Positions 16,446-20,867 of a stretch of 64,000 nt of DNA are shown here, piece after piece; the stretch's first letter is position 1; each line of letters begins with the position of its first letter. The DNA is from Flavobacteriales bacterium (GTDB lineage Bacteria; Bacteroidota; Bacteroidia; UBA10329), in assembly GCA_021741075.1 (NCBI GenBank), contig JAIOYO010000004.1, positions 23,908 through 87,907 of the forward strand, read 5' to 3'. The position numbers and the translations under genes were made by a program. The notes under the pieces are model-generated. The model had not been told where the DNA came from, ran no database searches, and was given only the letters and a program-made list of their open reading frames with translations.

Positions 16446-16880
16446 TCACGGGCGATAAACGGTGATGGTATCGCTTTCTACCAATTCGCTCCAATGCCCA
16501 TCTCTATCACGTATCATTACCTCAAACTGAAGTCGCTCTACCGAATCATTTCCAAGGATGAAAAGGTTATTCAACTTTACCGAAAGCCTTCCTTTTATTG
16601 GCACATTGGCATCAATGGGAGCCAAGGGTTGCACATGATAAAGGTCTTCGAATTGAAGACGGCTGTCCTTTACACTTAATGACGTTACATTCGGATCGAG
16701 GTGGCCGAGGTCGCCATTGTAATCATAGTAATCGAAGCTAATGGTGACGGTATCGGTAAATTCCTCTACCAACATTGGTTCTACCACGAGGTTAGTAATC
16801 TCTGGAAAGTCGGAGTGCTCTTCTTTACAGGAAGCTATGAGCACCACAAGAAGAATCATTATCAGTCTACGAATCTCCAC
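16446..16880 (-). CDS. small lipoprotein, unknown function
   Basis: 144 aa with lipobox LIASC. Overlaps the upstream gene by 19 nt. Confidence 0.5.
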   Translation of the reverse strand: MEIRRLIMILLVVLIASCKEEHSDFPEITNLVVEPMLVEEFTDTVTISFDYYDYNGDLGHLDPNVTSLSVKDSRLQFEDLYHVQPLAPIDANVPIKGRLSVKLNNLFILGNDSVERLQFEVMIRDRDGHWSELVESDTITVYRP

Positions 16881-17842
16881 GAGAAGTACTTTTTGATGTA
16901 TAACTGACTTCCATCTTGCGGGATGATGGTTGGGTCAGGTTGTGCATCGGTTTTTAGATGAACACGCACATAATAGGTGCTATCCTGTGCAAACTGCGAA
17001 GGATTGAATGTAAATTGATGGGTAAACTCAACAGGTTCTCCGGTAAACCCTGGTTGAATGTTGCCCGTGGTTTGATTCTGAAACAGATCGTATGTGGTAA
17101 TGAGCGAGTCGGTTTCGAAACCGATCTGCCCGCTCATTTTTGCCTTGGCATAGGTATAGGAATTCAGGTCTGTGTCATTATCGTAGATGGCAAACCACAC
17201 CTGCACCGATTGAGTGCCAATAGGAACATCCATCTGTGATCCGCTATTGCAATGTACGCCATCGGCAGTGGCGTAAATGCCTCCAATACCGGGTTGCTGG
17301 TTATTCTCGTTTGGGGCATTGCCAAACATATCCTTGGCACCATTCATAATCCAAGTGCTAATGTTGCTAAGATGCTCGGCCTTCTTGGCATTCCATTCCG
17401 ACTCGGGATCATAAAACGCATCTAGCGGCATAATGCCCGAAATGCCATCTATGTCTTCATTCAGGCGCAGCCACAAAATGGATTCAGACAATGAACCCGG
17501 CTTTACACGGTATTCATACGTTGCTGCAGGGTTGTTCTTTACGATGGGATGCAGCACCAATGTGTTGTAGGTGCTTTCGATGGTGCGGAAGTCGGGCTCA
17601 AACGTGCCATCATGGCATCCCGAATTGGCGCAAGTGGGTTTGAAAATGTTCTGGTGCAATCCTACAAAGCTTGTAGGGTCTACATTTTCAATTGCAGTGG
17701 TGTCTTGGGGCGGAAGATTGTCTGGATTATCAAACGGGTTCTTCTCATCCTTGCTGCAACTGCTTATGGAGAGGAGGAAAAGAGATAAGAGACAGAGAGA
17801 TAAGGTGGGGCGCAATGCAAGAATCGCAGATAACTTAGGCAC
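16862..17842 (-). CDS. lipoprotein with a PSCyt1-like (planctomycete cytochrome c-like) domain carrying C-x4-CH
   Basis: A GTG start at 17842 gives (M)PKLSAILALRPTLSLCLLSLFLLSISSC (lipobox). IFKPTCANSGCHDG...VKPGSLSESILWLRL...MP...ISTWIMNGA parallels the PSCyt1 layout. The longer track ORF reads through MITE copy B. Confidence 0.55.
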   Translation of the reverse strand: MPKLSAILALRPTLSLCLLSLFLLSISSCSKDEKNPFDNPDNLPPQDTTAIENVDPTSFVGLHQNIFKPTCANSGCHDGTFEPDFRTIESTYNTLVLHPIVKNNPAATYEYRVKPGSLSESILWLRLNEDIDGISGIMPLDAFYDPESEWNAKKAEHLSNISTWIMNGAKDMFGNAPNENNQQPGIGGIYATADGVHCNSGSQMDVPIGTQSVQVWFAIYDNDTDLNSYTYAKAKMSGQIGFETDSLITTYDLFQNQTTGNIQPGFTGEPVEFTHQFTFNPSQFAQDSTYYVRVHLKTDAQPDPTIIPQDGSQLYIKKYFSWRFVD

Positions 17843-17864
17843 ATAAGAGGCAAATTGAAATAAA

Positions 17865-17941
17865 GAGACACTTCGTTCCTCAGGGAAACAAACGGACAAG
17901 GCAGTGGTATCTACTTGTTTCGCTGAGGAACGAAGCGTCTC
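17865..17941. mobile_element. MITE/REP-like palindromic element, copy B (77 bp, inverted relative to A)
   Basis: GAGACACTTCGTTCCTCAG ... CTGAGGAACGAAGCGTCTC. The internal sequence is largely shared with copy A in reverse complement. Confidence 0.8.
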
Positions 17942-17991
17942 ACATTTAGGTACTGTTTGGTGAGAAGAAGAATTCGTTTCTAGCTTCATTC

Positions 17992-19320: not shown

Positions 19321-19365
19321 GTTCTATCTGCTGGTGACTGGTCGCTATTCACTGTTCGCTTTTCA

Positions 19366-19917
19366 CTAGTAGTATTGATACTCATCACTCAGCGCAAACG
19401 AAAAATACACCAACTCTGGCCTCACGTTCGGATGCGTATTGATGTAATTCTTGAAGTACTGTCGTTCGGCCTCGGTGGGGTTTCGTACCAGAAAGCGGTT
19501 GTAGGTTTCGGTAAGGAAAGCATCCACATCTGCCCGCATCTCTGCGTTTGTTGGAAGAATAACCCCTCCCGAATTCATGTAATTACTGATAAGCACCTCG
19601 TGCACAAGGTCTTTATCTCCTATAGATTGCACGCATTCGCTGGCCTCAAACAGATCATCGCTCGATAGAGCCGTTTGAAAAAGGTTGGCATACAGAATGG
19701 CAATGTATTGCTGGTCTGATTTCAGCTTGGTCTTGTTAGCATTAGGAGGGAGGATGGTTTCTTCATTCACCTCATAGAGTTTCTCCTTTTGGCAGCCTGC
19801 TGCAAGTAGAAGCATGAAGCACGAAAGAAAAAGAAATACGAAACGCGAGGCCGATACCGATGCGGACTGCGAATCTTCCATTACTTGAATACTTATAGGC
19901 CCCATCCCATTTTTCAT
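19366..19917 (-). CDS. lipoprotein, unknown function (R-N-P-T-x-A-E motif)
   Basis: Lipobox LLLAAGC. TYNRFLVRNPTEAERQYF resembles DUF4214/DUF1549-type motifs. The true start may be Met13 (19881). Confidence 0.5.
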   Translation of the reverse strand: MKNGMGPISIQVMEDSQSASVSASRFVFLFLSCFMLLLAAGCQKEKLYEVNEETILPPNANKTKLKSDQQYIAILYANLFQTALSSDDLFEASECVQSIGDKDLVHEVLISNYMNSGGVILPTNAEMRADVDAFLTETYNRFLVRNPTEAERQYFKNYINTHPNVRPELVYFSFALSDEYQYY

Positions 19918-19937
19918 TCTTAATTACTCATTCTTAA

Positions 19938-20867
19938 TTACTCAAAGTGCGCATACTCATCCGTTACCATAATGGCCCGCTGCACCTTCTGTAGGTCGTG
20001 GTCGAGCCAAAGGTCTATCATCAACTGGTTAGTTTCTGCCGTAGAAGGTTCTCTGGCAAGTAGCACTTGGTACGACCAAATGATGAGCCCTTCATAGAAA
20101 TTGCGCGAACCCACCAGAATAGTTACAAACTCCTGCTTGTTTTGGCCCGATTGTCCCATTAAAGAGGCTGGTTGGTTGTATTCTATCATATTAAACCCTG
20201 CATAAAACTCGGCATTGGTAGGAAAACGGAAGAAGAGGTTATCAAAACTGGCATTCACGAAGTTGAAAGTGTTCATGTTAATCTCATCAAACACGGCATT
20301 GTACACCATGGCGGCACACATGTCTGCAATACCAATCTCACCGTTAAAGTACTCGGCTTCCGAATCCAATACCGCCTGCAGCTTGGCTAGTTGAAGACGT
20401 CTTTCGGCCACACCTTCCCAATTACCGTTTAGCGAATCGGGAAGAATGCCACTGGCAATGGGCCCCATTACTTCCTGTATCTCTGCATTGGATGCCGCCT
20501 CCATAAAACGAGCTTTTCCCTGCTCATACAATCGGTTGTAATAGGCATGCTTGTACGATATATCGCCTGCAATAAAGTCGGTATTGGTCTGAAGCTTCAG
20601 AATCATGGCCTCCCGCGCCTCCAAACTCAGATTAGCCGCTTTGAGCGCAAGGCGTTCGGCATTCATCTCCGAATCAAACGGTTCTCTTCCTATTTGATCG
20701 ATGTACACCCGATTGATGTAGTTCTCAATGAGGAGGTCACTTACCTCAGAATAGTAGGGGGCATCATTGCCTGGCACCAACTCAGGGTCTTTCTTGCAGC
20801 CACTGGCAATAAGCGAAAGGGAAAGAAGTAAAAGGAAGAGACGTAGGTACCGCATTTCGGTTGACAA
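19938..20867 (-). CDS. lipoprotein, unknown function (two R-E-P motifs)
   Basis: Lipobox LIASGC. NRVYIDQIGREPFDSEMNAE and SYQVLLAREPSTAETNQL. 20-nt gap to the next gene. Confidence 0.5.
   Translation of the reverse strand: MSTEMRYLRLFLLLLSLSLIASGCKKDPELVPGNDAPYYSEVSDLLIENYINRVYIDQIGREPFDSEMNAERLALKAANLSLEAREAMILKLQTNTDFIAGDISYKHAYYNRLYEQGKARFMEAASNAEIQEVMGPIASGILPDSLNGNWEGVAERRLQLAKLQAVLDSEAEYFNGEIGIADMCAAMVYNAVFDEINMNTFNFVNASFDNLFFRFPTNAEFYAGFNMIEYNQPASLMGQSGQNKQEFVTILVGSRNFYEGLIIWSYQVLLAREPSTAETNQLMIDLWLDHDLQKVQRAIMVTDEYAHFE

Follow-up and report, generated by a model that had tools for sequence, protein, structure and literature searches.

Gene content and conservation of the cassette

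A 64,000-nucleotide stretch of a Flavobacteriales genome (GenBank assembly GCA_021741075.1, contig JAIOYO010000004.1, positions 23,908 to 87,907; hereafter the window) contains five co-directional minus-strand open reading frames (ORFs), here named A to E (Table 1). An initial annotation had described them as two lipoproteins (A and B), a DUF1501-like enzyme exported by the twin-arginine translocation (Tat) pathway (C), a lipoprotein whose core parallels the PSCyt1 domain (D) and a small lipoprotein (E), and had asked whether they form a Bacteroidota version of the planctomycete DUF1501 partnership. The five genes, their coordinates and orientation, all of the quoted motifs and the 19-nt overlap of E with the end of D were confirmed in the ORF list. 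The unit that is conserved is larger than five genes. It is a six-gene envelope cassette, A-B-C-D-E followed by a gene for a type-B cargo protein of the type IX secretion system (T9SS), here called T9, which lies next after E and outside the region first described; in about half of the relatives a seventh gene, encoding PorP/SprF, is added. The spacers within the cassette are short or overlapping, and no convincing intrinsic terminator was seen inside it.

Conservation was examined in related loci, defined as the best 80 from a degenerate-pattern scan of Genome Taxonomy Database (GTDB) species genomes for relatives of C. Presence counts for each gene refer to those among the 80 that have enough flanking sequence. 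The neighbourhoods of P0250, P0245 and P0257 gave nothing of use, their contigs being too short. A was found upstream in 61 of 66 loci and B in 69 of 73, D lay downstream in 66 of 72 and E in 66 of 69, and T9 was present next after E in 51 of 53, so that the synteny check proposed in the initial annotation came out strongly positive. A PorP/SprF gene (PF11751, E 4.5e-32) comes directly after T9 in 24 related loci; none adjoins T9 within the window. Order and orientation are kept across families at 34-95% identity, and the A-B-C-D order still persists where C is 34-39% identical (L013, L196). This arrangement is far beyond chance.

Relatives of C were found in at least 497 species genomes of the GTDB scan, nearly all of them metagenome-assembled genomes (MAGs) of uncultured Bacteroidota. 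Almost all of the best 80 loci come from MAGs of uncultured bacteria that were recovered from lake, sludge or sea-water samples and are classed as Flavobacteriales, Bacteroidia or Vicingaceae. Since C was present in only 6 of 301 genomes sampled evenly from the phylum, the cassette is patchy in its distribution. The C family is single-copy in the present genome (one match). A large protein collection holds more than 1,700 homologues of C, 1,358 of D and 681 of A, all named 'hypothetical' and almost none with a Pfam domain, for C none at all. Pfam gave no DUF1501, PSCyt1, DUF1549, DUF1553 or DUF1800 match for the five window proteins, and NCBIfam also gave none for these. The cut-offs were 27 bits for DUF1501 (PF07394), 22 bits for PSCyt1 (PF07635), 23.2 bits for DUF4214 (PF13946), 26.1 bits for DUF1800 (PF08811), 27 bits for CHU_C (PF13585) and 35 bits for TIGR04131.

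Table 1. Positions of the cassette genes and associated features in the window (aa, amino acids; MITE, miniature inverted-repeat transposable element).
Feature	Position	Strand	Details
A	19938-20867 (ORF, 309 aa); 19938..20855 (called protein, 305 aa)	-	P0391
B	19366-19917	-	183-aa ORF; protein about 165-183 aa
C	17992-19320	-	442 aa
D	16862-17995 (ORF, 377 aa); 16862..17842 (called protein, 326 aa, GTG start)	-	P0121
E	16446-16880	-	144 aa
T9 (T9SS type-B cargo)	12808..16341	-	~1,177 aa
PSCyt1-like haem domain of D (residues ~58-175)	17318..17671	-	hhalign to PSCyt1 set
CANSGCH of D	17612-17632	-	C-x4-CH
MITE-like palindrome	17863..17943	.	C-D spacer; inverted repeats I1-I3
Second MITE-like palindrome, inverted orientation	16302..16383	.	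E-T9 spacer; I1, I2, I4; D3, D4

Protein C: an alkaline-phosphatase-superfamily enzyme near DUF1501

The strings KRRGFIK, ECGRN and FDHSD were all found in C. Its Tat signal contains RR-x-F in 183 of 204 homologues, with R3 and R4 invariant across the deep split of the family, and it scores 16.4 bits against TIGR01409, a borderline value next to the cut-off of 16.7. The AlphaFold2 (AF2) model of C has a predicted local distance difference test (pLDDT) score of 70 and a predicted template modelling (pTM) score of 0.78. With this model, the top Foldseek matches were members of the alkaline-phosphatase (AP) superfamily, namely 3lxq, sulfatases, phosphonate monoester hydrolases, LtaS and alkaline phosphatases (E 1e-8 to 1e-6). 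In Pfam, C has a sub-threshold match to Phosphodiest, and a search of the PDB sequences with the C-family profile (hmmsearch) gave no match.

An exhaustive search with a limit of E<=1e-3 returned 534 relatives of C. The distant ones had DUF1501 as their commonest top Pfam match, two of them lying above its cut-off, and relatives at 25-35% identity scored 27.0-28.6 bits against PF07394. Profile-profile comparison by hhalign gave a result that depends on the breadth of the C profile. The tight profile (A1) matched DUF1501 at 71% (E 4e-5), Sulfatase at 31% and Phosphodiest at 29%, and the broad profile (A3) matched DUF1501 at 98.3% over 370 columns (full-length), Sulfatase at 97.0% and Phosphodiest at 99.0%. 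The DUF1501 alignment used here excludes L050_5257, a Rossmann-type non-member; a comparison of a shallow C profile with a single DUF1501 sequence (1.6%) was superseded by these comparisons with proper alignments. Because the profile statistics alone fit several families, the placement of C near DUF1501 is carried by motifs.

The motif set of DUF1501 consists of G-[GA]-x-x-Q-x-[DE], a His in place of the nucleophile, D-x-H, E-F-G-R and G-R/T-D-H, and the C motifs GGVRQQE, GH[YF], VDxCH, PE[CH]GRN and DHSD were found to be in register with it. After beta1, C reads G-G-V-R-Q-Q-E and DUF1501 G-[GA]-P-S-Q-L-[ED], whereas nucleotide pyrophosphatases/phosphodiesterases (NPPs) and sulfatases have a metal-binding Asp there. 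Aligned with the invariant His126 of C are a conserved His in DUF1501 and, in NPPs, the nucleophilic Thr. At the place of the NPP motif DHG, C has PE[CH]GRN and DUF1501 has EFGR. A final DH is shared by C and DUF1501, and the site-2 ligands D310/H313/H375 of C align with NPP metal ligands. Residues identical in both branches of the C family are the Tat RR, G48-G49-V50-R51, E54, G125-H126, D310, H313, D327, E354, G356-R357, D374-H375 and D377. The candidate catalytic residues are R51, E54, H126, D310, H313, D327, E354, R357, D374, H375 and D377. As judged from these alignments and the fold prediction, C is a Tat-exported putative metalloenzyme of the AP superfamily, belonging to an unclassified family on the fringe of DUF1501, to which it is closest in motif pattern.

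Protein D: a PSCyt1-like domain with a C-x4-CH motif

The series CANSGCH...VKPGSLSESILWLRL...MP...WIMNGA was found in D. A MITE-like palindrome between C and D makes the 377-aa ORF of D too long; relatives measure about 313 aa. D consists of an N-terminal cytochrome c-like domain of PSCyt1 type followed by a C-terminal immunoglobulin (Ig)-like beta-sandwich; in its AF2 model (pLDDT 75.6) the N-terminal domain has four helices and the beta-sandwich is confidently predicted. The invariant core of the D family reads F-x-P-x-C-A-N-S-G-C-H-D-G...RV-x-PG...S...RL...DIDG-x-SG-x-MPL...WI-x-x-GA.

This core was compared by hhalign with a reference set of 30 bona fide PSCyt1 domains taken from Bacteroidota genomes. 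The match was 97.1-97.6% (E 7e-11 to 3e-12, 88-89 columns), and each of six unrelated profiles used as negative controls gave less than 1%. In the alignment C-ANSG-CH stands opposite CxxCH with a two-residue insertion, and Met-Pro and WIxxGA are in register. The candidate distal Met-Pro is M138-P139, and the WIxxGA helix lies in the same domain. Among 193 D homologues C-x4-CH was found in 191, CxxCH in none, WIxxGA in 192 and SG-x-MP, with the candidate distal Met, in 158. C-x4-CH has been described as a haem c motif (bioRxiv 10.1101/2024.01.05.574438). Genes for CcsA-type cytochrome c assembly are present in this genome. Six-frame scans with PF07635 gave no match in this genome and, in the carriers G103, G087 and G167, matches elsewhere only and never at the D gene. 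By profile comparison, the N-terminal domain of D is nevertheless assigned as a homologue of PSCyt1.

Lipoproteins A, B and E

Lipoboxes for signal peptidase II (SPII) were found in A, B, D and E and, family-wide, in most of their homologues (56 of 65 for A; LLLAAGC in B). NRVYIDQIGREPFDSEM and LLAREPSTAE occur in A, and FLVRNPTEAE in B. The initial annotation had compared these motifs to repeats of DUF1549/DUF4214 type, and the DUF4214 part of this comparison stood. A is an all-helical lipoprotein of DUF4214/PBS-linker type; its window copy has no Pfam match, and at E<=0.1 PF00427 matched 13 of 25 family members and PF13946 matched 9 of 25. B has a C-terminal DUF4214 domain whose score of 23.2 bits for PF13946 is exactly the cut-off (E 7e-5). 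Direct homology of A or B to DUF1549/DUF1553 was rejected, as hhalign against 12 PSCyt1-DUF1549-DUF1553 proteins gave 2-5% and Pfam no match, and an equivalent of DUF1553 was not found for the cassette. Direct comparison with DUF1800 gave 17% for A and 0.6% for B. For E no Pfam or NCBIfam match was found, nor any similarity to the other cassette parts or to the fused partners described below, and E is specific to the Bacteroidota cassette.

Matches of 75-89% between the lipoprotein families in hhalign were signal-peptide artefacts, gone once the signals were cut off, and were taken as a calibration warning for the hhalign figures. The lipoprotein export signal (LES) that directs Bacteroidota lipoproteins to the surface has the consensus C-X-K-(D/E)2 after the lipidated Cys (Lauber et al. 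2016, PMC5080379). CSKDEK of D fits it exactly, CKEEHS of E is off by one, and CKKDPE of A and CQKEKL of B fit in part. The post-Cys consensus of the lipoprotein families is C-K-K-[DE]-E, with at least two acidic residues in 25-42% of the members.

Fused partners in another phylum

INTERMEDIATE architectures, found in the neighbourhoods of distant C relatives, settled the question of whether the cassette contains the parts of a haem-partner module. At locus L194 the enzyme is C-like at 29% identity and scores 28.6 bits against PF07394. The gene upstream of it encodes a single 902-aa protein with a PSCyt1-like domain (CGTSGCH) and a PKD domain. The C-terminus of this protein scores 25.5 bits against DUF1800 (cut-off 26.1), with DUF4214, DUF1549 and DUF1553 also below threshold, and the same C-terminus matches the A and B models. 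The C-family enzyme was found in 33 of 201 genomes of the high-GC phylum to which L194 belongs. In 10 of 14 further sister loci the enzyme is preceded by a partner that matches the A model, the B model or both at its C-terminus, with E values for B of 1e-8 to 1e-11 in eight. An N-terminal haem motif is present in seven of those partners and in that of L194, as C-x4-CH in four and as CxxCH in four. Pfam matches in the fused partners comprised PKD, DUF4214 in three (27.9-28.9 bits) and the N-terminal segment of DUF1549 (model positions ~9-75), which in one case, L230, exceeds its cut-off with 40.2 bits.

Profile-profile comparison extended these results. The C-terminal 330 aa of the fused partners matched A at 97.3% (E 2e-11, 205 columns) and, in tandem after A, B at 98.8% (E 6e-17, 125 columns); the same region matched DUF1800 at 91.7%. 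The N-terminal domain matched PSCyt1 at 96.8%, and the sister enzyme matched the C family at 100% (E 4e-48). By alignment, A corresponds to the penultimate domain of the fused partners and B to the final one. On these profile alignments, A and B are split and collinear homologues of the helical C-terminal part that a haem-PKD-A-B fusion partner carries. No counterpart of the beta-sandwich of D, of E or of T9 was found in the fused partners, their middle region included, and these three are assigned on the same grounds as Bacteroidota-specific additions. At L196, where C is 34% identical, an A-like gene (E 1e-22), a B-like gene and the C-like gene are followed by a 165-aa D-like lipoprotein with CFVAACH.

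In 14 of 15 sister loci a protein of ~1,000 aa with ten CxxCH motifs directly adjoins the enzyme gene, and the L194 copy of this decahaem protein contains LVIVD repeats. At L194 a gene for an EF-hand protein comes next. To our knowledge, the fused haem-PKD-partner/enzyme/decahaem module (L194, L217-L230) has itself not been described.

The type-B surface protein T9

T9 was found to contain a CUB-like head, Cys-paired Ig-like repeats, SprB repeats, a PKD domain (PKD_4, 49.3 bits) and a CHU_C sorting domain (PF13585, 37.6 bits; TIGR04131, 36.5 bits); homologues are ~1,170 aa long. It behaves as a specific ortholog of fixed length: of its 34 Cys, 31 are conserved (>90%) across a varied set of 46 homologues. 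The CUB-like N-terminal domain, at residues ~55-150, scores 21.3 bits against a cut-off of 21.4, and its identity across the family (~0.46-0.49) is no less than that of the rest of the protein. Like SprB, T9 carries a CHU_C/TIGR04131 sorting domain and SprB repeats, and like SprB/SprF it has PorP/SprF immediately downstream in 24 related loci. Unlike SprB, it is much shorter, begins with a CUB-like head and always has the A-E genes before it, and no PorP/SprF gene accompanies it in the window.

Neighbouring features

The two MITE-like elements in the C-D and E-T9 spacers are ~80 bp long and inflate the apparent ORFs of D and of T9, both of which read '...EERSVSL...' through the element. Directly upstream of A lies a gene for a 519-aa helical protein (20950-22509, minus strand). 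It was rejected as a member of the cassette, being present in 0 of 59 related loci, and its product has no Pfam match. A tandem array with a 42-bp period (22734-22994) is located upstream of this gene; it has five registered copies, the inner ones 84-100% identical. In the few loci with a lone C gene, an OmpA-like protein with thrombospondin-type repeats and an M1-like peptidase flank C, as judged by eye (L079:7056-7988 and 9471-11816). At least one such MAG, that of L079, encodes a D homologue in another part of its genome (locus tags ACKVTZ_20465, ACKVTZ_01330).

Relationship to known modules

Pairs of PSCyt1-PSCyt2(DUF1549)-PSD1(DUF1553) proteins with DUF1501 proteins have been described in Planctomycetota and Verrucomicrobiota (Kamneva et al. 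2012, PMC3542564). Dozens of these modules occur per planctomycete genome, and no function has been assigned to them since their description (PMC3542564). The cassette is similar to these pairs in combining a Tat-signal AP-superfamily enzyme with a haem-motif partner, in the PSCyt1-type domain of D and in the GGxxQxE, His, ExGR, DH motif pattern of C. It differs in that its haem motif is C-x4-CH instead of CxxCH, its partner is split into the lipoproteins D, A and B, and E and a T9SS cargo are added. Moreover, neither PF07394 nor PF07635 scores the proteins in the window, DUF1553 is lacking, and similarity to DUF1549 appears only in the intermediates of the other phylum.

PSCyt1 was also found in 67 of 201 Bacteroidota genomes, and canonical PSCyt1-DUF1549-DUF1553 plus DUF1501 pairs were confirmed there by Pfam at the three loci checked. 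The cassette is not the one Bacteroidota version of the planctomycete partnership, since canonical pairs are already present in the phylum; it is a separate, diverged lineage.

A second comparison is offered by the genome itself. A six-frame scan with PF07394 found two other genes (L001, L002), each adjoining a DUF1800 gene, and did not find C. As in these DUF1800 plus DUF1501 pairs, a helical partner gene in the cassette lies immediately upstream of a Tat-signal DUF1501-type enzyme. Unlike them, A and B have no significant DUF1800 match, and C lacks the T9SS type-A sorting domain that their enzymes carry. The two canonical DUF1501 proteins (L001:1060-2697, minus strand, and L002:667-2238, plus strand; contigs C21 and C72) are each encoded downstream of the DUF1800 gene, have an N-terminal twin-arginine motif (WDRRSFFKALGLG and FSRRDFMKLSSMA, respectively) and end in a T9SS type-A sorting domain (TIGR04183, 24.6 and 35.8 bits; cut-off 23). 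For one protein to carry both a Tat signal and a sorting domain for the T9SS would imply an unusual export route.

A further resemblance is to the fused haem-PKD-(DUF1549 N-segment)-DUF4214 module, which has the same enzyme family and a partner made up of a PSCyt1-like N-terminus, often with C-x4-CH, and a C-terminus of A then B. That module differs in that its partner is a single polypeptide with a PKD domain, in its decahaem neighbour and in having no T9SS gene, E or beta-sandwich. The fused partner is also not visibly a lipoprotein, as no lipobox was seen by inspection at the L194 N-terminus. Finally, C shares the AP-superfamily fold with NPPs (PF01663) and S1 sulfatases (PF00884), and its D-x-x-H and terminal His align with their metal ligands. 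Unlike these enzymes, it lacks the beta1 Asp and has His126 instead of the Thr or formylglycine nucleophile, reads E-x-GR for D-H-G and is exported by Tat.

Based on profile comparison, the cassette is a homologous, rearranged and highly diverged relative of the haem-partner plus DUF1501-type module. The view that it contains the same parts in split form holds in essence, by profile-profile comparison and through the fused intermediates; DUF1553 is absent, and DUF1549 and DUF1800 are reached only through the intermediates. The initial annotation had counted a lack of Pfam support for DUF1501 or PSCyt1 against its interpretation, and Pfam finds neither in the window proteins. Its core idea holds only with methods more sensitive than Pfam, namely profile-profile comparison and intermediate architectures. 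For D, the PSCyt1-like core with C-x4-CH was borne out by the hhalign match (97.6%) and by 191 of 193 homologues, and not by PF07635. For C, likeness to DUF1501 is favoured by the AP fold, the motifs and the tight profile; PF07394 gives no match, and the broad profile matches Phosphodiest as well as it matches DUF1501. The interpretation as a whole is partly supported.

Proposed function and alternatives

As a whole, the cassette is best explained as a split haem-partner/DUF1501-like module, possibly a redox-linked enzyme-cytochrome complex of the outer membrane, an explanation that we rate as evenly balanced between right and wrong. Under this proposal the four lipoproteins would hold the folded, metal-loaded C at the outer membrane, and D would bind one haem c via C71/C76, with H77 and M138 as candidate axial ligands. 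C would not be an ordinary phosphatase or sulfatase, because it has no beta1 Asp and carries an invariant His where NPPs have the nucleophilic Thr, and its chemistry would not be the canonical hydrolysis through a covalent intermediate. Electron exchange between C and its haem partner may be coupled to this chemistry or may gate it, a view that fits the sister module, which is wired to a decahaem cytochrome. T9 would serve as the cell-surface arm for binding a substrate or target. Taken jointly, a redox-coupled complex of C with the lipoproteins, haem on D and a T9SS binding arm is a tentative proposal, suggested by sequence and by analogy, whose chances fall somewhat short of even.

Several results weigh against the proposal. 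C gave no PF07394 match even at E<=1, and its broad profile matches phosphodiesterases and sulfatases as well as DUF1501. C312 and C355 are Bacteroidota-specific, the sister enzymes reading PEFGRD...LDHGD. PF07635 does not match D. Moreover, the AF2 model of D is of low confidence at just the two loops that would hold the haem, and Foldseek with this model found no cytochrome, only weak Ig/C2/CBM21-like matches; the cytochrome fold of D is therefore drawn from sequence profiles and not from structure. The redox context is taken from the sister family, whose enzyme is only ~29% identical to C, and a multihaem ORF was found in 0 of the 80 Bacteroidota loci. A surface location of D, which its LES suggests, would put it in a different compartment from C as a periplasmic Tat substrate. 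Finally, C was found without its partners in 4 of the 80 loci.

The alternative that survives best is an ordinary nutrient-scavenging hydrolase. In this case C would be an esterase of the phospho-, phosphono- or sulfo- type, located in the periplasm or at the surface and Tat-exported like PhoD and PhoX, the lipoproteins would be accessories for tethering or substrate binding, and the domain of D would be structural or a sensor with no catalytic role. The AP fold, the sulfatases, phosphonate monoester hydrolases and alkaline phosphatases among the best structural matches, the alignment of D310/H313/H375 with NPP metal ligands and the aquatic heterotrophic life of the carriers are all consistent with it. 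Because the broad profile matches phosphodiesterases at 99.0% and sulfatases at 97.0%, a hydrolytic role of C retains some probability. Against it stands the absence of both the beta1 Asp and the Ser/Thr/formylglycine nucleophile. A haem-type partner kept across two phyla and down to ~29% enzyme identity, with a decahaem protein added in the sister family, is also hard to explain for an esterase. We consider this alternative unlikely, though still a serious contender.

The haem itself can be questioned. The C-x4-CH of D may be the relic of a cytochrome, now a disulfide or metal site in a domain that is only a fold for protein-protein interaction. Non-canonical haem motifs can need dedicated haem lyases (system II specialisation), and no dedicated haem lyase was identified here; the low-confidence motif loops, the Foldseek result without a cytochrome and the lack of a PF07635 score for D would also suit a haem-free domain. 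Such a relic is difficult to reconcile with the retention of the two Cys and the His by 191 of the 193 homologues, of SG-x-MP by 158 and of WIxxGA by 192, with the finding that either CxxCH or C-x4-CH occupies one and the same N-terminal site in the fused partners, and with the standing of C-x4-CH as an accepted haem c motif in a genome that has cytochrome c assembly genes. A haem-free D is rather unlikely in our judgement.

A further possibility reverses the roles, with the adhesin T9 as the end-product and A-E acting to mature, modify, anchor or regulate it, for example by processing it, by chemistry that attaches it or by handling the redox state of its 34 cysteines. T9 is indeed the most constant neighbour (51 of 53), a specific ortholog of fixed length with 31 of 34 Cys conserved and with PorP/SprF next to it in 24 loci, and the canonical DUF1501 proteins of this genome, as T9SS type-A cargo, link the enzyme class to T9SS. 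On the other side, the A-B-C-haem core occurs without the T9SS protein in another phylum and at L196, and T9, E and the beta-sandwich of D have no counterpart in the module of the other phylum. Since the core module is found without T9SS, it would have its own function, older than the T9SS association, and a role of A-E as servants of the cargo is quite improbable. That the genes are mere neighbours with no common function is barely credible, since the four loci with C alone are all that speaks for it and order and orientation are kept at 34-95% identity, spacers are short or overlapping, and elsewhere a single protein unites A, B and the haem domain.

The redox-linked module can be put in a more general form, in which the C family, and by extension DUF1501 proteins, would be redox-coupled metalloenzymes on an alkaline-phosphatase scaffold and not hydrolases. 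They would be exported by Tat with a preassembled metal site (His126/Glu354/Glu54 plus Asp310/His313/His375) and would pass electrons to or from a dedicated c-type haem partner, which in Bacteroidota would be the C-x4-CH monohaem lipoprotein and in the sister phylum a monohaem partner plus the decahaem cytochrome. This generalization, drawn from sequence comparison, is bold and on present evidence doubtful.

Implications

All six products of the cassette are now annotated as hypothetical, and the results given here provide them with family definitions. The comparison yields a compact set of candidate catalytic residues and a consistent link to c-type haem, and with it the role of DUF1501 becomes a testable question of redox chemistry versus hydrolysis. 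In the cassette the partner domains are encoded by separate genes, the haem domain in D and the helical domains in A and B, each of which can be deleted or expressed alone. The cassette is single-copy here and occurs widely among aquatic Flavobacteriales that are abundant and for the most part uncultured. If the redox-coupled metalloenzyme interpretation is true, the Bacteroidota cassette would be a minimal, genetically separable redox machine, displayed at the cell surface beside a T9SS protein.

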